From a virus (Monodnaviria; Loebvirae; Hofneiviricota; Faserviricetes; Tubulavirales; Inoviridae): a DNA stretch of 9,340 nt. Shown one piece after another: positions 1 to 9,340 of this stretch. The notes beneath the pieces are model-generated. The model saw only the letters and a list, made by a program, of their open reading frames with translations. It did no database searches and was not told the origin of the DNA. The first letter of the stretch is position 1; the number at the start of each line of letters is the position of its first letter. A program made the translations under genes and the position numbers. Location of the stretch: the IMG/VR virus record IMGVR_UViG_2609460053_000007; one strand, written 5' to 3'.

Positions 1-150
1 AAATTTCCATATGAAGTATTACACCCGCAACATGGGATTGAAATTTTAGCGGGACTAAGCTTTGGAAGCAAAACTAAATACCGAATAAAACTCATATGGG
101 ATGACAATTATAAAAAAAGGAATGAAGAGGAGTTTTTCATTTCTATATAA
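1..150 (+). CDS. 5'-truncated copy of the C-terminal 49 codons of the 159-aa membrane-anchored protein (duplicate of 9092-9241)
   Basis: Sequence identical to 9092-9241 and in frame with the 8762-9241 ORF. It is truncated by the window edge, not necessarily a real pseudogene. Confidence 0.6.
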   Translation, partial: KFPYEVLHPQHGIEILAGLSFGSKTKYRIKLIWDDNYKKRNEEEFFISI

Positions 151-181
151 ATTGGTTCGCACAATGACGTTATGCTAAAGA

Positions 182-218
182 GGCCGCTGCGGGATACGAT
201 TTTCGCAGCGGCCTTTTC
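182..218 (+). terminator. Rho-independent terminator-like hairpin after the plus-strand accessory operon (copy 1)
   Basis: Perfect 10-bp GC-rich stem GGCCGCTGCG (182-191) / CGCAGCGGCC (204-213), 12-nt loop, followed by TTTTC (214-218). Lies 32 nt after the stop of the 159-aa ORF in the second copy. It could alternatively be an ori or packaging hairpin. Confidence 0.6.
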
Positions 219-247
219 AACATAACGAGTCGTACATTATGCGCACC
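215..247 (-). other. dif-like XerC/XerD recombination site (candidate attP) with extended central region
   Basis: Minus strand reads GGTGCGCATAA-TGTACGACTCG-TTATGTTGAAA. The XerC arm matches E. coli dif (GGTGCGCATAA) 11/11 and the XerD arm matches TTATGTTAAAT 9/11. The central region is 11 bp instead of 6 bp. The dif sequence is quoted from memory. Confidence 0.65.
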
Positions 248-281
248 AATGGTAAGGATGGCAGAATCTGGCGGGAATCGT

Positions 282-309
282 TGACACTGGCCGTCAACTG
301 GCTACTATC
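282..309 (+). promoter_or_regulatory. Candidate sigma70 promoter (TTGACA-16 nt-TACTAT) overlapping an inverted repeat
   Basis: -35 TTGACA at 282-287, 16-nt spacer, -10 TACTAT at 304-309. The -35 sits inside the inverted repeat GTTGAC (281-286) / GTCAAC (294-299). Predicted start near 316, reading antisense to the ORF 388-582. Confidence 0.35.
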
Positions 310-378
310 GACAGTGATTCAAAATCATCCGTTTCTCCAAACGAATCAGAATCAAATGTCTGTCAGCAGTAAGTGAAC

Positions 379-401
379 GGCCTGACCTCACCAATCAGGC
401 C
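379..401. repeat. Inverted repeat / hairpin GGCCTGA-(9 nt)-TCAGGCC
   Basis: Perfect 7-bp stem 379-385 / 395-401. The stop codon of the minus ORF 388-582 lies in the loop. Followed on the plus strand by TGTTCATCC. Possible terminator for a short plus-strand transcript or an ori/packaging hairpin. Confidence 0.35.
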
Positions 402-582
402 TGTTCATCCAGTTAGTTGGTAAATCTGTACCTGATACACGAGAATCAAACACCACTTCTTCAGTGCCATCACCATGATGCCGGAATGCTGGATCTTTAA
501 GAAGCATCACTTTCAGCTCCTGATGTGTCATGAATTTTTCCATGATAAGCCCCGATGAATGCTGCCGCGCCGAATCAGCCAT
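388..582 (-). CDS. Hypothetical small protein (64 aa; possibly 47-51 aa from internal ATGs), cargo position
   Basis: ORF in the six-frame track. No convincing SD before the first ATG; the internal starts (MEKF.., MTHQ..) have weak GGGG/GGAA upstream. No recognisable motif. May be a spurious ORF in a structured non-coding region. Confidence 0.3.
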   Translation of the reverse strand: MADSARQHSSGLIMEKFMTHQELKVMLLKDPAFRHHGDGTEEVVFDSRVSGTDLPTNWMNRPDW

Positions 583-727
583 AACGCTGAAAATGGAAAC
601 TGTACGGCTTGGCCAACCCCGGACAGCAACAAAACAAGTTTTGTCACTGACCGGCGTTATCTTTCAAAACAGACAGTTAACGATTTTTTGTCTGGTGTTT
701 ATGCGTGAAATTTCGTGCGTACGAAAT

Positions 728-976
728 TCACCACCAATAAACAAACGGACGATGACTGACCGGAAAAGCAATGCCGTCAGCATCATGACCACGCATTACC
801 TGATTGAGAAGCCTTCTGACTTCACGACGCTCAGGCCTGGTCATCATCATATTGCGATACCAGGACGGCGATTTATCAAACCATCTGGCACAACTGGCAA
901 AATGTGAACCTACACGACGATAAGACTTAAGGCGGCCACCGGGAAGTCGGTCACGCGCCTTATTTTTTACAGACAT
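728..976 (-). CDS. Hypothetical small basic Arg/Trp-rich protein (82 aa), cargo position downstream of gIV
   Basis: ORF with a good RBS (GAGGA, 6 nt before the ATG at 974-976). Same orientation as the core genes. No recognisable domain. Confidence 0.45.
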   Translation of the reverse strand: MSVKNKARDRLPGGRLKSYRRVGSHFASCARWFDKSPSWYRNMMMTRPERREVRRLLNQVMRGHDADGIAFPVSHRPFVYWW

Positions 977-1064
977 AATAAATCCTCTAAGTAACTGAAT
1001 ACCTAGAAGATGTCGTACTGTTCATACCCCATAAAAGTTAACGCCATAATAAAAATCCATACAA

Positions 1065-2309
1065 TCAGTTCAGGTTGTCCCGGAACAGTTCACCGCTCCT
1101 CGCGGCGCTGCGGGGCGTCGCCCTGCTCCGGTCAACCTTTCTGACCTGAAGCATCACCATAATATCAGTCTTGTTGCTTTCACTGGTACGGGAACCGAAG
1201 AAGCTCCAGCCGGAACTGGCCTTACTGTCTTTCTGTTCAGCAAGGCCACCAAGTAAAATAATATCACCATCTGCAAGGCTGACTTCGGTTGTTACATCAC
1301 GCTTGATAAGGGTTGGCGAGTTATTGACGCCGGTTTCAGTGGTCACAAAGTTGGAAAGCTGCTGCTGAATCTTGAGATCCATTGTCCGACTTTTGATTGA
1401 TGGCGTCACGTTAAACAAAACACCGCTGGAACGATATTCAACGGATTGCGTTGTCGTATTGTTATTCACCGTAACACTGCCCAGTACTGGCACATCAGAG
1501 CCGACTGAAAAAGACGCTGAGGCATTATTTTTTACCCGCAGTCGTGGCGCACTGACAACAGTAAAACGACTGTCGGTTTTCAGCAGATTGAAAATGGCAT
1601 CAATGGAGCCGGTTCGAATATTGATAAAATTATCCAGTCCGGCAGCACCAACTGAAATATTGAATTTATCAGACAGAATTTTAGCCGCTAAAAGAATGCC
1701 GGAGCCGTCAGACTGCGAGGTCTGAACCTCAAAAACATAACCAGAAACAACCACTTCATCACTCATCGTATCCAGCGAAGTGACCAGTGTTTTCAGGATG
1801 GCGATATCCTCTTTCGTACCATAATAAACCAGAATATCACCGGTTCGATTGATGTAGTTGCTTGCCCCTGATGAACCTTTTAGCGAATCGTCAGAAATCA
1901 CGGCTCCACTGTTATTGAAGGAGCCTGAAACGTAGCCGCCAAGAATATCAGACAGGTAGGCAACAGAACGGTACTGAGGCGTATAAGTCCATGTATAACG
2001 TGGCTTAACCGGCTCTTTCGGCGTATAGGGCGCGATAAAATCAACACCCTTTTTCGTCCATATTCGAATGTTCATATTGCCAAGATAACGGGTTACAAAT
2101 TCCCGTTCATCAATATCAGGTGTTAACCTGAATGTAATCATTCGTTCATCATTAACAAGCTGTGGATCTAGCATATACGGGACTTTAAGCACCTCACTGT
2201 AAATAAGAGAAATAGCCTCCGGTAGCTTGACTTTATTTAATTCAAGCTCTGACCCTGCGAAAGCACATGAAGAAAATAGTAGCGTTAATGCGAGTAAAAT
2301 CTTTTTCAT
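1065..2309 (-). CDS. Phage-encoded secretin (pIV-like) for virion extrusion
   Basis: 414 aa; N-terminal signal peptide MKKILLALTLLFSSCAFA with AxA cleavage motif; C-terminal secretin-like region (VVSAPRLRV...DGDIILLGGL...). Last gene of the morphogenesis block, as in Ff phages. Start ATG overlaps the gI stop (TAATG at 2307-2311). Confidence 0.85.
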   Translation of the reverse strand: MKKILLALTLLFSSCAFAGSELELNKVKLPEAISLIYSEVLKVPYMLDPQLVNDERMITFRLTPDIDEREFVTRYLGNMNIRIWTKKGVDFIAPYTPKEPVKPRYTWTYTPQYRSVAYLSDILGGYVSGSFNNSGAVISDDSLKGSSGASNYINRTGDILVYYGTKEDIAILKTLVTSLDTMSDEVVVSGYVFEVQTSQSDGSGILLAAKILSDKFNISVGAAGLDNFINIRTGSIDAIFNLLKTDSRFTVVSAPRLRVKNNASASFSVGSDVPVLGSVTVNNNTTTQSVEYRSSGVLFNVTPSIKSRTMDLKIQQQLSNFVTTETGVNNSPTLIKRDVTTEVSLADGDIILLGGLAEQKDSKASSGWSFFGSRTSESNKTDIMVMLQVRKVDRSRATPRSAARSGELFRDNLN

Positions 2310-3334
2310 TATTTTTTCCCCGTATAAAGCGTCACACGCTCACCATCAATAATTCCGCTCATCAACATCCCTTTGTAATTAAAACTGGATGCAGGAACGG
2401 CACGCAAAACACCGGCACCATTAACAAGAATCACAAACGCCCTGCCTTCACTGGTCATTCTCCCTGATATACGCCACTCGGTTGAAAGTGGCGGTTCAGC
2501 TGGTTCTGAGGGAGTATCTGGTGCTGGAGTAGCAGCGGAAGAACGAAACATGGCCGCATCACGTACATCTGTTGTAGTCAAATCTGGCGAGGGATCGCTT
2601 CGGCCAAACGTGCTGAAAAATGAGTAAATCAGCCAGCCTGACCCGATAAACATCAATGGAAAAAGCACAAGAAAGAACCTGACTTTGCCAGAATTCCAGA
2701 TGCTCTGGCGTTTATCTGTCTGCTTTTCATTACCGTTATTTCCTTCATAACTTTTGTAAAGTTCAAAAATATCAGGGTTATATTTATTGCGATAACTGGT
2801 GACGAGGTTGCTTTTATAGATTTTGTGGCCTGAATATACGTCAATGCAGTAATGATTATTCAGGCCCAACGCTTTCAGCTTGCGCATCCGGTAAGTTGTT
2901 TCTATTTTGTCTTTCAGAAAGCGAGCAATATTAGAAAGTGACTGATTTACAATAACCAAATCACAGCTAATACCCGTTTCAGGGTGCGTAAAATGACGAT
3001 GTTCAGCAATAAATGATTTCTTCTCAGCCGTCATATCCTTATCGCTACCGAAGATTCGCCATGCTTCATCAATAACAATTAAATCACCAAACTGGCAAAA
3101 GCTCCCTTCCCCACCTTTAAAAGGAAAGAAATCTGCTTTAAGCACATCATCATTATCCACAACAATAATTTCTCCCGTTGCATCAGGATAACGTTCGGTG
3201 ATTTTATCTTTTTGTAAACCATAAATGTTCGTCACAACTCTCCGGCCGCTGGTAAATGCCGGAATAATGACATTGCAAACGGCTTCATAACTTTTTCCTG
3301 AGCCGGGTATGCCAATATATGCAGAAATAGCCAT
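2309..3334 (-). CDS. Zot-like assembly ATPase (pI-like)
   Basis: 341 aa; Walker A GIPGSGKS near the N-terminus, Walker B-like LIVIDEAW, single TM segment (FFLVLFPLMFIGSGWLIYSFF) in the C-terminal half. Position between gVI and gIV. Confidence 0.9.
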   Translation of the reverse strand: MAISAYIGIPGSGKSYEAVCNVIIPAFTSGRRVVTNIYGLQKDKITERYPDATGEIIVVDNDDVLKADFFPFKGGEGSFCQFGDLIVIDEAWRIFGSDKDMTAEKKSFIAEHRHFTHPETGISCDLVIVNQSLSNIARFLKDKIETTYRMRKLKALGLNNHYCIDVYSGHKIYKSNLVTSYRNKYNPDIFELYKSYEGNNGNEKQTDKRQSIWNSGKVRFFLVLFPLMFIGSGWLIYSFFSTFGRSDPSPDLTTTDVRDAAMFRSSAATPAPDTPSEPAEPPLSTEWRISGRMTSEGRAFVILVNGAGVLRAVPASSFNYKGMLMSGIIDGERVTLYTGKK

Positions 3335-3337
3335 AAC

Positions 3338-3625
3338 TCACCCTATAACAGGAATACGTCGAATAATAAAACGAGTAGCCATTGCGGAGATAATCATACT
3401 AATCCCCTGTGGTAATTTACTCAGGTTAATGAAGTACCAGAATCCGTCTGATAAATTGGCAAACAGCGATGAGAGATTGCTTGAATCTGGCAGTAACTCA
3501 ACAAGGATTTCAACGAAGCCCTGGACTACAAAATACAGCGCAAAGAATACGACGAATTTAATAATCAATGACCGGAATACAAAACCTAACAAAGTATTTA
3601 ATGCACTAATCAGAATCCCAAACAT
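3338..3625 (-). CDS. Minor coat protein pVI-like (hydrophobic)
   Basis: 95 aa, strongly hydrophobic with multiple TM-like segments. Position between gIII and gI. Weak resemblance to f1 pVI (recalled from memory). Confidence 0.7.
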   Translation of the reverse strand: MFGILISALNTLLGFVFRSLIIKFVVFFALYFVVQGFVEILVELLPDSSNLSSLFANLSDGFWYFINLSKLPQGISMIISAMATRFIIRRIPVIG

Positions 3626-3637
3626 AGTTGCACTCCT

Positions 3638-5350
3638 TTAGGCACTCAGAATAATACGGAGCGCAACAAATCCCCATATAATCAGAAATATGGTTTCTAC
3701 GGCGCTTCTGTTCTGCTCAATTAACGGACAATGGGAGTCAATTCTGTACTGGTGATTAAACACGCTGAATTCAACAACGGGGCAGGATGCTGAACGAGAG
3801 CCGATGTTAAATTCGTTTGTAAAAGGCAACAAATTAATAATTGGCGTTAAAATATCTCTTGCCGTTGGCGTTTCTTCAAGCTCAGGCTCTTTTACACCGG
3901 GATCTTCTCCCAAATCTATATTGCCATTATTTCCAGTGTCAGATCCTGAGTTGTTATTAATGGTAATATCAATATTGACGTCAGCCCCTGCACTGTCAGA
4001 TACAGGTGAAAGCATATCTAATAACGTTGGAGATAGCCTAAGTTCCGACATCGCAGAAGTTACTTCAGCCGGTGAAACCTCTTTAAACGGTAAGCCGTTA
4101 TAATCGGCATTAACGGCAGCTTCAGACCACAGCTCGTTAATCATGTCGGCAAGAAGTGCTGGCGATACACTAACACTATCAAGATACTCCAGATAATCAA
4201 TCATGGACTCAATATTTCCAGCCTCCAGTACTTCCGTCATGGCTTTATATTTGGTATTGGTCCAGATAGTAAGCTCACTCTTTTCATCAATATCTTTTGC
4301 GGTGTAATCCTCTTTTTCAGGAACGGCACAAATCGTCGAATATCCACCATTTGACTGATTAGTCGTTTTACAAGGCGTGTTGTGATACTGATATTGCTTT
4401 CCTGCTGTTAAATAAGCAACGCTGTAATACATGGGAAGCCCTGCTACATTTTCATACATGGGAATACCTGCGGGAAATGAAGATGCGGCCGGGTTGCTAT
4501 ACAAGTGTGTAATCTCAGGTATTTCATAAAATGAGGAAGGATAAGTAAACTTATAATTCTGTTCAGTAAAGGATACATCTCCATTACTGTTGACAACTTT
4601 ATTCGTCACAGTGCGTTCAAAATTCGTTAGTGTTTCAGTATAAGTACGCGAGTTATAGTCATTAAGATAATTTCTGGCAATTTCAGTTGGATTATCACCA
4701 TAGTAATAAATTAGCTCTTTCGAATCCTGATAATAATAAAGTGCATTATCTGGCGTGGAATATCCTGTTTCAACACCTACAACTGGAGAACCCGCATCCA
4801 CATTATTACGACTAACATGAAGGATTACCGGACTTAATTCCTGTGGTTCAAAATTAACGGTTATCGTCTTACTTTCACCACTTTGACCACTGTACGTTAC
4901 TTCATATAAATTATCGGAAATCTTTTTACCGTTAGTCATTACCATTACCGAGCCGTCAGATGAACTCAAAGAAGACGGAACAAAAGATGATACAGCAGCA
5001 GCAATACCCGCCCACGTTGCAACACCGCTCATTTTGTATGATGAGGCAGCAGGCAAGTATTCGGCAGCATTAGCCGCAGCGCGGCCAACAAAAACACGGG
5101 TTGCTGTAAGCTGTGATGCCGTATAAATCGCATCATTGGCAGCAAAGCGACGAACAAGCACCCGGCCAACGACTTTAGGAATAACAGCCCGCGCAGCCAC
5201 TGCTGCAATTGCTGGTACAAATGAATATGAATATCGGGGAAAGGAAACCCAGAGAAAGGAAAAAATAAAGGAATAAACCGTCAGCCTCTTAGCCCAAGAA
5301 TAACGACATAAGCTGAGACGATCCCCCATAAAAGGGAACCCAATTTCCAT
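3638..5350 (-). CDS. Adsorption / receptor-binding minor coat protein pIII-like
   Basis: 570 aa as drawn. Asn/Gly/Ser-rich linker (NNNSGSDTGNNGNIDLGEDPG) and C-terminal hydrophobic anchor (IFLIIWGFVALRIIL), typical pIII architecture. SD GGAG 7 nt before the ATG at 5348-5350. An alternative start at the ATG 5030-5032 (M107) would give a 464-aa product. Confidence 0.75.
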   Translation of the reverse strand: MEIGFPFMGDRLSLCRYSWAKRLTVYSFIFSFLWVSFPRYSYSFVPAIAAVAARAVIPKVVGRVLVRRFAANDAIYTASQLTATRVFVGRAAANAAEYLPAASSYKMSGVATWAGIAAAVSSFVPSSLSSSDGSVMVMTNGKKISDNLYEVTYSGQSGESKTITVNFEPQELSPVILHVSRNNVDAGSPVVGVETGYSTPDNALYYYQDSKELIYYYGDNPTEIARNYLNDYNSRTYTETLTNFERTVTNKVVNSNGDVSFTEQNYKFTYPSSFYEIPEITHLYSNPAASSFPAGIPMYENVAGLPMYYSVAYLTAGKQYQYHNTPCKTTNQSNGGYSTICAVPEKEDYTAKDIDEKSELTIWTNTKYKAMTEVLEAGNIESMIDYLEYLDSVSVSPALLADMINELWSEAAVNADYNGLPFKEVSPAEVTSAMSELRLSPTLLDMLSPVSDSAGADVNIDITINNNSGSDTGNNGNIDLGEDPGVKEPELEETPTARDILTPIINLLPFTNEFNIGSRSASCPVVEFSVFNHQYRIDSHCPLIEQNRSAVETIFLIIWGFVALRIILSA

Positions 5351-5382
5351 AATTCAATCTCCATAATAACCTCAAGTAAAAC

Positions 5383-5401
5383 GGGCGATATTGCATCGCC
5401 C
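5383..5401 (-). terminator. Terminator-like hairpin downstream of the major coat protein gene
   Basis: 7-bp stem GGGCGAT/ATCGCCC with 5-nt loop. On the minus strand it is followed by GTTTTACTT. Ff phages have a strong terminator immediately after gVIII. Confidence 0.5.
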
Positions 5402-5414
5402 ATGAATAATGAAT

Positions 5415-5648
5415 TTATGCGGATTTAACGGTACGCAATACCCAGCGAACGCCAGCGACACCGGCATAAAGTGTTACCAGTGAAGCAGCAACGGCCATAA
5501 TCGCAACCAGAACTGTACTGAAATCAATGCTGTTCGTCAGCGGCGATAAATCAACACCACTTGATGCCGCTCCTTCTGCAGCGAAAGTCGCGCCAGAAAC
5601 AGCCATTAATGCAGGTACAGCCAGAAAACTAACGATTTTTTTAAACAT
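5415..5648 (-). CDS. Major coat protein pVIII-like
   Basis: 77 aa; signal peptide ending AxA (..SGATFA|AEGAAS), acidic N-terminus of the mature part, hydrophobic core (VLVAIMAVAASLVTLYAGVAGV), basic C-terminus (RWVLRTVKSA). SD GGAG 8 nt upstream. Confidence 0.9.
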   Translation of the reverse strand: MFKKIVSFLAVPALMAVSGATFAAEGAASSGVDLSPLTNSIDFSTVLVAIMAVAASLVTLYAGVAGVRWVLRTVKSA

Positions 5649-5682
5649 AACTCTATCTCCATTACATTTTAAAGGTTCGCAT

Positions 5683-5934
5683 TCAAGCAGTACGAACCAT
5701 CTTTATTACCTGTCCCACACCTACAGAAAAAAGCCAGAGCAGCAGGACAGAGCCAAAACCTAATGTCCAGTAATTTCCCATTGCAGAATAATCAATTTGA
5801 TGAAATGGTTCAGAACGTACCATTATTGCCTGACATTCTTTTGCATTGTTCGCATTACATAAATAACCTTCAATACGGTAACCATTTTCAGGAATATGAT
5901 TATCAAACTGAATATCGAAACCTGATGCATCCAT
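5683..5934 (-). CDS. Small protein with C-terminal hydrophobic helix at the pVII/pIX position (putative minor coat protein)
   Basis: 83 aa with C-terminal TM-like segment WTLGFGSVLLLWLFSVGVGQVI. Lies between gV and gVIII where Ff phages encode pVII/pIX. ATG 2 nt after the gV stop. Confidence 0.5.
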   Translation of the reverse strand: MDASGFDIQFDNHIPENGYRIEGYLCNANNAKECQAIMVRSEPFHQIDYSAMGNYWTLGFGSVLLLWLFSVGVGQVIKMVRTA

Positions 5935-5936
5935 AA

Positions 5937-6254
5937 TCAGCCTTTTATTTCAGTAATGCCGCCATCTGATGAAATGTTATAAGTTACTCCTTCCCTCCCC
6001 TCCATTGACCAGACGCGAACATATACAGGTATCTGGACTAACTTACCGATAAAATTATTTGCCTGATTCATTACACCGGCATTAACAAGAGCCTGAGATA
6101 CACGAATAATAATCTGGTCTTGCTTAGTGCCGCCAAAACCATCAGGAATCTCTAAGCCAACACCAATTTCATTATAGTATCCCTGACCATTGACCTTATT
6201 ACGCTGGCGAGCACCAAGCATTTTACCTTTTACAAAAAGACCATAATTAGACAT
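5937..6254 (-). CDS. Putative ssDNA-binding protein (pV-position)
   Basis: 105 aa, immediately downstream of gII and upstream of the coat genes. Assignment is by position and size only; no clear similarity to f1 pV was recognised. Confidence 0.55.
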   Translation of the reverse strand: MSNYGLFVKGKMLGARQRNKVNGQGYYNEIGVGLEIPDGFGGTKQDQIIIRVSQALVNAGVMNQANNFIGKLVQIPVYVRVWSMEGREGVTYNISSDGGITEIKG

Positions 6255-6265
6255 ATCACTCTCCT

Positions 6266-7318
6266 TTAATGCCAGTTACTGGCATGTGAAATACGGTTAT
6301 AATCGAAAATTAAACCTTTCTCATAAACCCATGATGGAATTTTGGCTGGTTTGGCTTCAAGAGTACGAACCAACGGAACAACGTTATTAGAATCCGGTGA
6401 CTCACAATAAAAGTTAATATCTATTCCGAAAGAAAGTAATTCTTTACGGTGTCGGTAGAATGTAGGTTTCGGTAACATCTCTTTCATGTTCGCGCCCTGC
6501 TTCCACAATAAATATGTAGACTGTATTTTTCTTGGGAGATTAATTATTTTTTCATCAGTTAATATAGTATTTTGATTCATTTCTATTCTCCCTACATAGT
6601 CAGAGAATAATTTATTGGGCGTCTCAATATTCCAGCTATTACCAAGCGTAAGATTCAAATCAATTAATTCAGTTGTTCTTAATGTTAATTCAATGCGTAA
6701 TTTATCTTTTGACCAGTCCAGTAAACCAGCTTTAACGAATTCGTCTGCCATCTGGTGCCCTTTTTTGCCAGATGTATGCTCATCATATTTTGAATAAAAT
6801 TTCAGGCTCCAACGACGGGAGTTTTTCCCTAAGTAAACAGTGCCACCTTTACCACAGGCGCGACCGTGGCGAGTTTTAGCTTTAAATTCTGCGGCATATA
6901 ACCATGCGCGGACATTTTCTAATGTTGACAATGAATACATGTAATTGATATCGATGCGCGAGATCTTAAATTGCCCTTCCATGACCTGCCGATAGGATGG
7001 TAGATCATGAGGAATATGCAGTAATGCCAATATTCTGGCGTAAGCTGTTAACACCAACCCTTGCAAATCGTCGGAACCGATAACAGAGTGACCTTGCAAA
7101 AACTTTGATGGATTACCGTCAATGTAGAGATGTGTTGCCCGACCTTCACCATCAGATCCAACAGACCTTACTTTCATTGTGGACTCATGCGAACCGCGAA
7201 CGGTCAACCGTTTTACTGTTTCCCACTCCACTGCACCGTCAGCATCGACGCTGACGACACTACCAGCCGGTAACGGTCGGTGTGTGCAAGGCAGGATTCC
7301 GGTAAACCAGTCGATCAT
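6266..7318 (-). CDS. Rolling-circle replication initiator (pII / RstA-like)
   Basis: 350 aa; N-terminus MIDW... and motif KFLQGHSVIGSDDL resemble f1 pII (MID..., KVLQGHNVFGTTDL, recalled from memory). First gene of the minus-strand block, divergent from the HTH regulator. Confidence 0.85.
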   Translation of the reverse strand: MIDWFTGILPCTHRPLPAGSVVSVDADGAVEWETVKRLTVRGSHESTMKVRSVGSDGEGRATHLYIDGNPSKFLQGHSVIGSDDLQGLVLTAYARILALLHIPHDLPSYRQVMEGQFKISRIDINYMYSLSTLENVRAWLYAAEFKAKTRHGRACGKGGTVYLGKNSRRWSLKFYSKYDEHTSGKKGHQMADEFVKAGLLDWSKDKLRIELTLRTTELIDLNLTLGNSWNIETPNKLFSDYVGRIEMNQNTILTDEKIINLPRKIQSTYLLWKQGANMKEMLPKPTFYRHRKELLSFGIDINFYCESPDSNNVVPLVRTLEAKPAKIPSWVYEKGLIFDYNRISHASNWH

Positions 7319-7344
7319 AAGTAGTCACACCCATCAAAATATGT

Positions 7345-7416
7345 GTCAATAGTCATTTGTGAGCAGATTGAATGGTCACAATGTAATATGCTCAGTTCTG
7401 ACAGTCAATACATTTG
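7345..7416. promoter_or_regulatory. Imperfect direct repeats GTCAATA(GT)CATTTG: candidate operators in the divergent control region
   Basis: gtcaatagtcatttg at 7345-7359 and gtcaatacatttg at 7404-7416. The second overlaps the predicted -35 of the gII promoter. Confidence 0.35.
7380..7408 (-). promoter_or_regulatory. Candidate sigma70 promoter for gII (minus strand)
   Basis: On the minus strand: -35 TTGACT (7403-7408), 17-nt spacer, -10 TACATT (7380-7385). Confidence 0.4.
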
Positions 7417-7427
7417 CAATGTTTAAA

Positions 7428-7457
7428 TTGTCAGAAATGAGCATCAAATCTAACTAT
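7428..7457 (+). promoter_or_regulatory. Candidate promoter for the HTH regulator gene
   Basis: -35 TTGTCA (7428-7433), 18-nt spacer, -10 AACTAT (7452-7457). Weaker match than the gII promoter. Confidence 0.25.
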
Positions 7458-7489
7458 TGAAAAACCACTGTTAAGATGGAGCCAAGTAG

Positions 7490-7936
7490 ATGGGCAACAA
7501 TGAGCATGAAGTTATGGCGGACAAACAGAGAGCAGAACGTATCAAAAAGGTAATTCTGGAACACTCGACTTATGAAGAACTGGCCAAGAAGACTGGCATT
7601 AGCGTGAGTACGCTGGTCAGGATAGCGTCCGGCAAAACTGAACCTAAATTCAGTGACATCATTCAGATAGCTAAAATTACGGGTGCAGACTTAAACACCT
7701 TAGCTTATGGCTATGCTCTTGATGTTAAAGAAGAAGCTACCGAGCGGAAGCTAATCACTTCTGCGGATGGATATACTGATGAAGAAACCACTAACGCACA
7801 TAATTTCATCGTGTGGAACATCAGGACACTGGAAAAACAAGATATTCTGGCACTCGCAAGGCAGGTTTCTGCCTTAAGTTCATACACTTACAGTACTAAA
7901 ATGTTTATGAAAAAAGCGGTGTCTGGAGAAGAGTAA
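7490..7936 (+). CDS. HTH XRE/Cro-CI family transcriptional regulator, putative phage repressor (RstR-like position)
   Basis: 148 aa; helix-turn-helix signature EELAKKTGISVSTLVRIASGK plus a C-terminal extension of about 70 aa. SD GGAG 8 nt upstream. Divergent from the replication gene, as rstR is from rstA in CTX-type phages. Confidence 0.8.
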   Translation: MGNNEHEVMADKQRAERIKKVILEHSTYEELAKKTGISVSTLVRIASGKTEPKFSDIIQIAKITGADLNTLAYGYALDVKEEATERKLITSADGYTDEETTNAHNFIVWNIRTLEKQDILALARQVSALSSYTYSTKMFMKKAVSGEE

Positions 7937-7947
7937 AAGGATTAACA

Positions 7948-8001
7948 GTCTCAGGAATGAGACAAACGTGCAGTATTACCAACACTGCACGTTCTTTATT
8001 G
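7948..8001 (+). terminator. Tandem hairpins after the regulator gene (terminator or operator palindrome)
   Basis: GTCTCA-GGAA-TGAGAC (7948-7963), then a perfect 10-bp stem AACGTGCAGT (7965-7974) / ACTGCACGTT (7984-7993) with 9-nt loop, followed by CTTTATTG. Confidence 0.5.
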
Positions 8002-8035
8002 TGCGAATTTTGAACAGTGAAAAAGGATCAAAAGG

Positions 8036-8458
8036 ATGAGTAGAAATAACGAAACAAGCGGCGTTGAACTGGTTGTCGTGGGCGTATTTGCTTTCTGTCT
8101 GGCAGTTGTTGCCTGGCTAATGAAAACTTTCGATGTTGAATGGCAAACAGCGCTGGAAACTGCGCCTGGCCTGATAGTGTGGCTGCTTGTTGTCGGGGCG
8201 GGGATCTTTTTCGGGATCAAAATGGAAACAGGCCTTGTTCGCTGGGGTGCTCCACTGGCGATCGCCCTTCTGATTCCGGTATTCAAACCAATTCTTAAGG
8301 AAGCTGCCGGAGTTCGTGAAACGGGTGGGCTGGTTTTCGATGATATGGTTTCGTGGTACGGAACTGGCTGGGGAATGTCGTTGATGTTTTTCGGAATTCT
8401 TATCATCGGATACGGGATGCTTTATTGGTGGCACAGAAGAAATTCATATTACTGGTAA
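8036..8458 (+). CDS. Hypothetical integral membrane protein, about 4 TM helices (accessory operon gene 1)
   Basis: 140 aa; hydrophobic segments at about residues 12-29, 45-61, 70-83 and 112-132; aromatic/basic C-terminus WWHRRNSYYW. SD AGGA 8 nt upstream of the ATG. Confidence 0.75.
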   Translation: MSRNNETSGVELVVVGVFAFCLAVVAWLMKTFDVEWQTALETAPGLIVWLLVVGAGIFFGIKMETGLVRWGAPLAIALLIPVFKPILKEAAGVRETGGLVFDDMVSWYGTGWGMSLMFFGILIIGYGMLYWWHRRNSYYW

Positions 8459-8486
8459 TCAATAAAACGTAGAAGAGAGGAAATAT

Positions 8487-8762
8487 ATGAAACTGAATCC
8501 TGAGAAATACAATAGAAATATCACCCTGCTATGTCCTGTGTGCGGAAATACAGAGATGGAACACGAGGAAGAGTCTGAAGTCGTCAGATGTGTAGGCTGC
8601 GGGAAAGAATTCACTAATGATGAGTTAATCCAAGAAAACGGGGTGAGTATTGACGCCCATGTGGATGAGATAAAAGAAGAGTTAACAAAAGATATTCAAA
8701 AACAGTTTAACGACATGCTCAAAAAGGCATTTAAAGGAAGTAAAAATATAAGGATTAAATAA
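8487..8762 (+). CDS. Hypothetical zinc-ribbon protein (accessory operon gene 2)
   Basis: 91 aa; Cys16-x2-Cys19 ... Cys35-x2-Cys38 (CPVCG-x15-CVGCG); acidic middle and Lys-rich C-terminal helix-like tail. Strong SD AGAGAGGA upstream. Stop overlaps the next start (TAATG at 8760-8764). Confidence 0.7.
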   Translation: MKLNPEKYNRNITLLCPVCGNTEMEHEEESEVVRCVGCGKEFTNDELIQENGVSIDAHVDEIKEELTKDIQKQFNDMLKKAFKGSKNIRIK

Positions 8763-9241
8763 TGACAACAAGTGATGCCATCGCTTTAGCTGCGCTTGTA
8801 GTATCGATTTACACTATCATATCATCAGAAGTGAAGTCGAGAAAAAGTGATAGAGAACAAAAGGTTATAAAGGATGAGCAAGACAGATTACGTAAGTTGC
8901 TTCTGGAAAAAGAAACAAAGTCAGCAATTAATGAGATGAAGGCTGAGCTTGGTGCCCGCCTCGTAAAAATAGCCAAAAACAACTATAGACTCAAGATATT
9001 TAATAGAGGGAAAGTTGAGGCTAAAAATATAGAGATTCATTTCCCTGATAACGATGGCAATGAATATCTTTCCATGCATGATGTAGAAGATAAATTTCCA
9101 TATGAAGTATTACACCCGCAACATGGGATTGAAATTTTAGCGGGACTAAGCTTTGGAAGCAAAACTAAATACCGAATAAAACTCATATGGGATGACAATT
9201 ATAAAAAAAGGAATGAAGAGGAGTTTTTCATTTCTATATAA
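8762..9241 (+). CDS. Hypothetical N-terminally membrane-anchored coiled-coil protein (accessory operon gene 3)
   Basis: 159 aa; N-terminal hydrophobic helix (AIALAALVVSIYTIIS), highly charged K/E/R-rich helical region, then a C-terminal domain. Start is translationally coupled to gene 2. Followed by the strong hairpin at 9273-9309. Confidence 0.7.
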   Translation: MTTSDAIALAALVVSIYTIISSEVKSRKSDREQKVIKDEQDRLRKLLLEKETKSAINEMKAELGARLVKIAKNNYRLKIFNRGKVEAKNIEIHFPDNDGNEYLSMHDVEDKFPYEVLHPQHGIEILAGLSFGSKTKYRIKLIWDDNYKKRNEEEFFISI

Positions 9242-9272
9242 ATTGGTTCGCACAATGACGTTATGCTAAAGA

Positions 9273-9309
9273 GGCCGCTGCGGGATACGATTTTCGCAGC
9301 GGCCTTTTC
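9273..9309 (+). terminator. Rho-independent terminator-like hairpin after the accessory operon (copy 2 of 182-218)
   Basis: Identical to 182-218: 10-bp GC stem, 12-nt loop, TTTTC tail, 32 nt after the stop codon at 9239-9241. Confidence 0.6.
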
Positions 9310-9338
9310 AACATAACGAGTCGTACATTATGCGCACC
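9306..9338 (-). other. dif-like XerC/XerD site (copy 2 of 215-247)
   Basis: Identical to 215-247; the window ends 2 nt beyond the XerC arm. Confidence 0.65.
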
Positions 9339-9340
9339 AA

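Follow-up and report, generated by a model that had tools for sequence, protein, structure and literature searches.

Looped-back ends of a filamentous phage contig from Escherichia coli JA69 and a probable head-to-tail prophage array at dif

The window, by which we mean the whole stretch of 9,340 nucleotides (nt) analysed here (IMG/VR record IMGVR_UViG_2609460053_000007, Inoviridae), is the entire contig JFFO01000066.1 (9,340 bp, reverse-complemented) of assembly GCA_000599825.1 from E. coli JA69. The two ends of this contig are identical, and our reading, to which we give a probability of about 0.85, is that they loop back because the phage is a CUS-1/YpfPhi-type prophage lying as a head-to-tail array at the chromosomal site dif. 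Integration of such inoviruses at dif through host XerCD, in arrays of 2–4 copies, is already established.

Terminal repeat and attP region

Exact comparison confirms the report of the first-pass annotation that positions 1–249 and 9092–9340 are identical; 249 nt is the longest prefix of the window that equals a suffix, and the period inside the window is 9091. The same annotation had advised inspection of the source assembly, where the window proves to be a whole draft contig with nothing upstream of base 1 in it. Its account of the repeat, as holding the 3' end of the last operon gene, a terminator hairpin and one dif-like site, needs amendment in its last item. The repeat begins with the final 150 nt of an open reading frame (ORF) of 159 amino acids (aa) at 8762–9241, equivalent to 1–150, and a GC-rich stem-loop that is plausible as a terminator is present, but there are two dif-like sites, in inverted orientation. 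The features of the region are as follows.

1–249, no strand: first copy of the terminal overlap, holding the phage-phage junction that continues into 250 and beyond; identical to 9092–9340
9092–9340, no strand: second copy of the terminal overlap; identity of phage and chromosomal dif region ends with base 9340 (the attR boundary)
154–180, plus strand: dif-like site A, GGTTCGCACAA-TGACG-TTATGCTAAAG, with XerC-like arm 154–164, 5-nt centre 165–169 and XerD-like arm 170–180; 9/11 and 9/11 matches to the E. coli dif arms; repeated at 9245–9271
182–213, no strand: GC-rich stem-loop at the tip of the attP hairpin, with 10-bp stems 182–191/204–213 and a 12-nt loop 192–203; followed by TTTTC and repeated at 9273–9304
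215–247, minus strand: dif-like site B, GGTGCGCATAA-TGTACGACTCG-TTATGTTGAAA, with XerD-like arm 215–225, 11-nt centre 226–236 and XerC arm 237–247; 11/11 and 9/11 matches to the E. coli dif arms; repeated at 9306–9338
233–249, no strand: 17-nt core TACATTATGCGCACCAA, common to the phage and the chromosomal dif region and found at both ends of the integrated prophage
481–485, no strand: CCGGA at the junction of an in-frame 54-nt gap, with deletion junction sequence GATGCCGGAATGCTGG

The minus strand, folded as single-stranded DNA (ssDNA), forms a hairpin of 94 nt at −31.2 kcal/mol (z = −7.5) in which sites A and B pair with each other: the XerC arm of site B pairs with the complement of the site A arm, the two XerD arms pair, and the central region is left as a bulge of 7 nt against 1 nt. 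A consensus fold of five natural variants keeps the XerC-arm, XerD-arm and GC stems, with 35 pairs of which four are compensatory; the sample is small, and all four compensatory pairs come from one relative in Brenneria, three of them being changes in the GC stem-loop. That stem-loop is a plausible candidate terminator for the plus-strand operon, and a simple terminator scan did not call it, the loop exceeding 8 nt. By inovirus convention the minus strand, as the sense strand of the morphogenesis operon, would be the packaged (+) strand. Site B, whose XerC arm matches that of E. coli dif in full, is the place where recombination with dif occurred.

Prophage junctions and arrays at dif

E. coli JA69 is a blood isolate for which two data sets exist, MiSeq paired-end 250-bp reads assembled with the A5 pipeline and a PacBio assembly made with HGAP2, from DNA preparations made separately (PMC4271156). 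In the PacBio data, contig JMJE01000001.1 (27,587 bp) reads in order through the equivalent of window 1348–9340, a full further unit, and hipA/hipB. Units in this contig recur every 9,145 bp, window 200–300 is matched exactly at the copy-copy junction, and the chromosome starts directly after the base equivalent to window 249. JA69 carries at least two head-to-tail prophage copies at dif. Between the two forms offered by the first-pass annotation, a circular replicon or a tandem prophage, the long-read assembly supports the tandem prophage for this strain. A different sequence immediately upstream of position 1 would, by the same account, have marked the repeat as a local duplication; what stands there in JA69 is a preceding phage copy, which bears out unit periodicity. 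The proposed unit of 9091 bp is right for the contig but not for the strain, where the PacBio unit is 9,145 bp.

The same locus is occupied in many other E. coli genomes. Megablast against complete E. coli genomes returns 86 that cover at least 80% of the window, with identity up to 100%, and at the loci inspected in detail the prophage sits between canonical dif and hipA/hipB. FDAARGOS_1303 has three copies, FDAARGOS_1299 two and GON1437 one, all of them between canonical dif and hipA, and the unit of the one complete-genome array measured is 9,144–9,145 bp. Window 1–485 is 100% identical to the copy-copy junctions of the complete-genome arrays and of the JA69 PacBio contig. The phage-phage junction is present in 63 complete genomes (181-nt probe, at least 80% covered) and the left-end region of the phage in 98, at a median of two and a maximum of four places per genome, so that roughly two thirds of phage-carrying complete genomes (63/~98) hold at least one head-to-tail junction. 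These numbers of places agree with the arrays of 2–4 copies at dif reported for YpfPhi, which also has a regenerated dif and inverted XerC/D sites (PMC4266046). CUS-1Phi and YpfPhi are listed as phages of the CTXPhi type (PMC4246890; PMC3089051), and the earlier statement that tandem arrays are common among dif-integrated filamentous prophages, and needed by some of them, matches the CTXPhi and YpfPhi literature.

The junction sequences define both prophage ends to the base. At left junctions (loci L002 and L003) the canonical 28-nt E. coli dif, ATTTAACATAATATACATTATGCGCACC, is continued by the phage from 233 on, giving an attL of dif followed by TGGTAAGG. At the right junction, phage site B with its 11-nt centre ends at 249 in GCGCACCAA and is followed by the chromosome, giving GCGCACCAA then CATAAACC as attR, and the phage-phage junction reads CGAGTCGTACATTATGCGCACCAATGGTAAGG. 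In four loci (L001, L002, L003 and L005) the equivalent of base 249/9340 is the last one before the chromosomal sequence departs from the phage. Single-copy prophages have only the 17 nt of 233–249 in common between their ends. Canonical dif is therefore regenerated on one side only of the integrated element.

Origin of the terminal overlap and of the 9,091-nt unit

The final base of the window is the last base shared by phage and chromosome, and the window starts 249 nt ahead of its equivalent. The first-pass annotation held that the integration state could not be determined from this window, which shows no non-phage flank; in fact it can be inferred, since the last base of the contig is also the last on which the phage and the chromosomal dif region agree. 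For a random cut of a free circle to fall on attR, the chance is about 1 in 9,091. Taken with the reference junctions, the window's end at attR gives independent support for integration in the sequenced DNA.

A5 contigs are built by IDBA, an iterative de Bruijn assembler that proceeds from a minimum to a maximum k (PMC3441570). The overlap of 249 nt is the read length of 250 nt minus one, the largest k−1 overlap possible with such data. Because 249 = 250 − 1 under this scheme, the repeat is most likely the k−1 overlap of a cyclic assembly path and not a physical terminal repeat; the maximum k of A5 is presumably set to the read length. With a tandem array in the sequenced DNA, the assembly graph would fork where the last copy meets the chromosome, the next base being either phage or the hipA-side flank, and the contig would break at that fork, on attR. 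The observed start and end of the window are those expected of a loop whose anchor is the forking k-mer at attR. The terminal-overlap ('circular') contigs known from de Bruijn assemblers likewise have an exact prefix equal to the suffix, of length k or k−1; the difference from the usual case is that the cycle here reflects a chromosomal tandem repeat, instead of or besides a circular molecule.

Similar contigs exist elsewhere. In Brenneria alni, contig NZ_MJLZ01000070.1 (9,278 bp) is a whole phage contig with an exact terminal overlap of 240 nt, which covers the attP hairpin and ends 10 nt past the XerC arm; its phage is ~77% identical to the window, and we regard it as the same assembly phenomenon in another genus and an unrelated assembly. 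Blocks that index the pIII protein of the window's phage number 1,177; the longest carrying contig is only 5–10 kb in 259 of them, and stand-alone phage-sized contigs appear to be common among short-read E. coli assemblies.

Several observations weigh against the array reading or limit it. Neither paper gives the k that A5 used on the JA69 data. In a strict unitig a second break would be expected at the attL merge point, 233, and the contig has none; as a strict unitig, with breaks at both attL and attR, the data would have yielded contigs 1–481 and 233–9340 and not the single contig observed, and we rejected that description. The PacBio assembly is itself fragmented, in 27 contigs, the copy number of two or more is a lower bound, and a second, phage-only PacBio contig (JMJE01000003.1) could come from the interior of the array or from free replicative-form (RF) DNA. 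Furthermore, both PacBio copies contain 54 nt that the window lacks, and the contig is in this respect not faithful to the units of the long-read array.

The missing 54 nt account for the difference between units of 9,091 and 9,145 bp. They are absent at 481–485, between two CCGGA pentamers, relative to every other copy examined (complete genomes, both JA69 PacBio contigs and YpfPhi). The gap is in frame and takes 18 codons out of a conserved small ORF, which matches the phrog_6642 profile in two separate stretches. Of three versions of this small ORF (64, 51 and 47 aa), only that of 51 aa led to the source contig in exact-protein comparison. Records of the deletion allele are limited to contig JFFO01000066.1, and scans of viral and metagenome contigs did not find the deletion junction. 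The left breakpoint, 481, equals 232 + 249, which is the last base of 250-mers that still hold the base left of the attL crossover, and this suggests an assembly or post-assembly effect; A5 does break scaffolds where discordant pairs cluster, and rejoins them with SSPACE. De Bruijn graph logic was considered as the origin of the gap and set aside, no mechanism having been found by which it would give a clean in-frame deletion from CCGGA to CCGGA. A private slippage deletion in the sequenced colony is equally possible. We think it rather unlikely that the 9,091-nt unit is real in the sense of a deletion variant, as a free circle or as the dominant form of the array in the MiSeq colony, alongside wild-type chromosomal copies.

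In a related explanation the contig derives mainly from a free circular RF coexisting with integrated copies, the 9,091-nt unit being an extrachromosomal variant and the chromosomal copies wild type. Strains with an integrated YpfPhi prophage do also hold extrachromosomal forms (PMC4266046). Moreover, the Illumina contig has the deletion allele in linkage with the phage-phage junction, while neither of the junction-proximal PacBio copies has it, the two DNA samples were prepared independently, and RF and inter-copy junction have the same sequence, which leaves the window alone unable to tell them apart. Small supercoiled circles are also often under-represented in 10-kb SMRTbell libraries, a point that counts in favour of RF. 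We nevertheless consider this explanation unlikely: JA69 offers no direct evidence of RF, the wild-type 54 nt are present in the phage-only PacBio contig, the allele has no second record, and the position of the left breakpoint at the k-mer horizon from attL points to the assembly.

A purely extrachromosomal state in the source strain, with the phage as a circular replicon and no integration, would fit a window without host flank and has a precedent in non-Orientalis Yersinia pestis, which have YpfPhi only as an episome (PMC4266046). It is very improbable here, given that in the same isolate a PacBio contig connects the phage with hipA/hipB, that the contig ends exactly on the attR boundary, and that all complete-genome loci with inspected flanks adjoin canonical dif or hipA/hipB. 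Least credible of all, and refuted by the junction data, is that the repeat is a local duplication or the true direct terminal repeat of a linear genome. Identical ends are the criterion by which genomes with direct terminal repeats are flagged in viral metagenomics, but the ssDNA that inoviruses package is circular, in long-read and complete assemblies the first copy of the repeat is preceded by the rest of an entire phage unit, and the ends of single-copy prophages repeat no more than the 17-nt core.

Integration, relatives and gene content

On the array reading, the array would be a normal product of CTXPhi-type integration. The circular viral (+) strand, corresponding to the window's minus strand, would fold its inverted dif-like sites into a hairpin that mimics dif, and host XerC would exchange one pair of strands with dif at the border of XerC arm and central region. 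Replication would resolve the strand-exchange intermediate, leaving a true dif regenerated on the far side and able to take further copies. A XerC cut at GGTGCGCATAA^TGT on the minus strand, with exchange against the top strand of dif, predicts the layout that is observed, in which true dif flanks the element on the XerD side, and site A, the hairpin and site B face hipA on the XerC side. The position of the crossover can be read in Y. pestis NCTC5923, where the XerC arm of the host dif differs by one base (L019, 993–1086 against 9735–9828). The arm at the right end of the array, TTATGTGCACC (GGTGCACATAA), is of the host type, and the inter-copy arm, TTATGCGCACC (GGTGCGCATAA), is of the phage type. 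The host arm is thus joined to a phage centre, which places the crossover, as judged from these arms, at the border between XerC arm and central region; catalysis would be by XerC. No recombinase or integrase family is found among the Pfam matches of the 15 ORFs, nor in PHROGs or PADLOC. For CTXPhi, integration is irreversible and production depends on tandem copies (PMC4246890; PMC3089051), and by analogy tandem copies would let the phage Rep make new circles from the chromosome without excision. We propose that use of ssDNA, catalysis by XerC only and dependence on tandem copies may extend from CTXPhi to the CUS-1/YpfPhi phages.

By its nucleotide identity and gene order the window's phage is a member of the CUS-1/YpfPhi lineage of the Inoviridae. 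YpfPhi (CUS-2) of Y. pestis biovar Orientalis, as represented by the NCTC5923 prophage, is 99.67% identical over 7,538 nt (window 480–8016), has the same attP region (150–485, 99.7%) and is likewise integrated in tandem, but window 8016–9240, the cargo beside attP, has no match in the Y. pestis locus; cargo genes are known to differ between CUS-1 and YpfPhi (PMC4266046). The CUS-1 prophage of E. coli O18:K1:H7 (UTI89) shares species, locus (from the dif-side genes to hipA), core genes and gene order, and its left-end region is 99.4% identical; it differs in having a gene for a 369-aa protein in the cargo slot in place of the 91-aa and 159-aa pair, and it is assembled as a single copy. CTXPhi of Vibrio cholerae, an integrative mobile element exploiting Xer (IMEX), is a more distant counterpart. 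It likewise has no integrase, carries two inverted dif-like sites that fold in the (+) strand, and integrates at dif with dif regenerated, its tandem arrays serving phage production (PMC4246890; PMC3089051). In both phages one site has an over-long central region, of 11 nt in the window's phage and 12 nt in attP1 of CTXPhi (PMC3089051). Spacing between the sites and hairpin length are ~35 nt and 94 nt in the former, as against ~90 nt and 150 nt in CTXPhi, and the window's phage, unlike CTXPhi, has its own secretin. Megablast of the whole window against the phage collection gave no match, with no nucleotide similarity detectable to CTXPhi; YpfPhi and CUS-1 are evidently not separate records in that collection.

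Close relatives also occur on contigs binned in metagenome-assembled genomes of 'Aerococcus sp.' and 'Candidatus Nanosynbacter sp.' (L021 and L023), with Rep 96% and 86% identical and window 7935–9340 matched at 95.5% in L023. These contigs are probably mis-binned, and the named taxa probably not real hosts.

The genes of the window are arranged in two divergent groups. The minus strand carries, in order, Rep, G5P, two small membrane/coat proteins, the pIII-like protein, DUF2523, Zot/pI and the secretin, and the plus strand carries a helix-turn-helix (HTH) regulator followed by three small genes. Matches to Phage_CRI, G2P_X_C, Putative_G5P, DUF2523, Zot and Secretin are all above the Pfam cut-offs and identify an inovirus core operon. 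The assignments are as follows.

6266–7318, minus strand: replication initiator, pII-like, 350 aa (Pfam Phage_CRI 1e-73, G2P_X_C 4e-34)
5937–6254, minus strand: ssDNA-binding protein, G5P-like, 105 aa (Pfam Putative_G5P 1e-52)
5415–5648, minus strand: major coat protein candidate, 77 aa (PHROG 2186, virion structural protein, 4e-29; the Pfam Phage_Coat_B score is below its cut-off)
3638–5200, minus strand: putative adsorption protein, pIII-like, 520 aa as annotated in genomes, with the frame open up to 5350 (operon position, PHROG 3942)
3338–3625, minus strand: DUF2523 small membrane protein in a pVI-like position (Pfam DUF2523 1e-20)
2309–3334, minus strand: Zot/pI-like assembly ATPase, 341 aa (Pfam Zot 2e-26)
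1065–2309, minus strand: pIV-like secretin, 414 aa (Pfam Secretin 1e-24)
7490–7936, plus strand: divergent HTH regulator in an RstR-like position, 148 aa (Pfam HTH_3 2e-9); YPO2273 is its YpfPhi homologue (PMC4266046)
8487–9241, plus strand: variable pair of cargo genes, for a zinc-ribbon protein of 91 aa (ECs_2282 family) and a protein of 159 aa, the second gene reaching with its 3' end into the repeat

The cargo slot (8460–9241) lies between a gene for a 140-aa protein and attP, and its contents vary. Other near-identical prophages have there a DpnII/MboI-like protein of 264 aa with DUF6953, a 363-aa or 369-aa protein, or a pair of 155 aa and 123 aa, and YpfPhi has yet another gene pair. The slot looks like a moron or defence hot spot beside attP; for the window's own cargo pair PADLOC gave no convincing defence-system assignment, only weak zinc-ribbon matches.

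A part of the attP region is also found outside the phage. Site A, the GC hairpin and the XerD arm of site B (window 153–224) recur with ~93% identity at ~477 places in E. coli plasmids. In the two plasmid copies inspected (L026, 4001–4074; L027, 4001–4071), both in plasmids of avian pathogenic E. coli and one of these a ColV plasmid, the fragment closes a small cargo cassette, consisting of an ECs_2282 zinc-ribbon gene with two small ORFs or of an STM4504-family gene. A chromosomal copy (L003, 23804–23877) comes after a SIR2 gene. The fragment is cut within a dif-like site by sequence resembling the end of an insertion sequence (IS), beside transposases annotated as ISNCY. The IS1202 family targets dif-like sites (PMC10132070), and the interrupted plasmid fragments fit this published targeting, which suggests that these IS elements carry phage cargo and attP fragments over to plasmids.

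When a phage-sized contig of an isolate assembly begins and ends with exactly the same sequence, the genome is not necessarily circular or terminally redundant, and a contig break exactly at attR is informative on the state of integration. If the 9,091-nt variant were real, it would be a snapshot of rapid turnover in a dif-integrated array. To the established picture of these phages our one quantitative addition is the share of phage-carrying complete E. coli genomes in which a head-to-tail junction is found.

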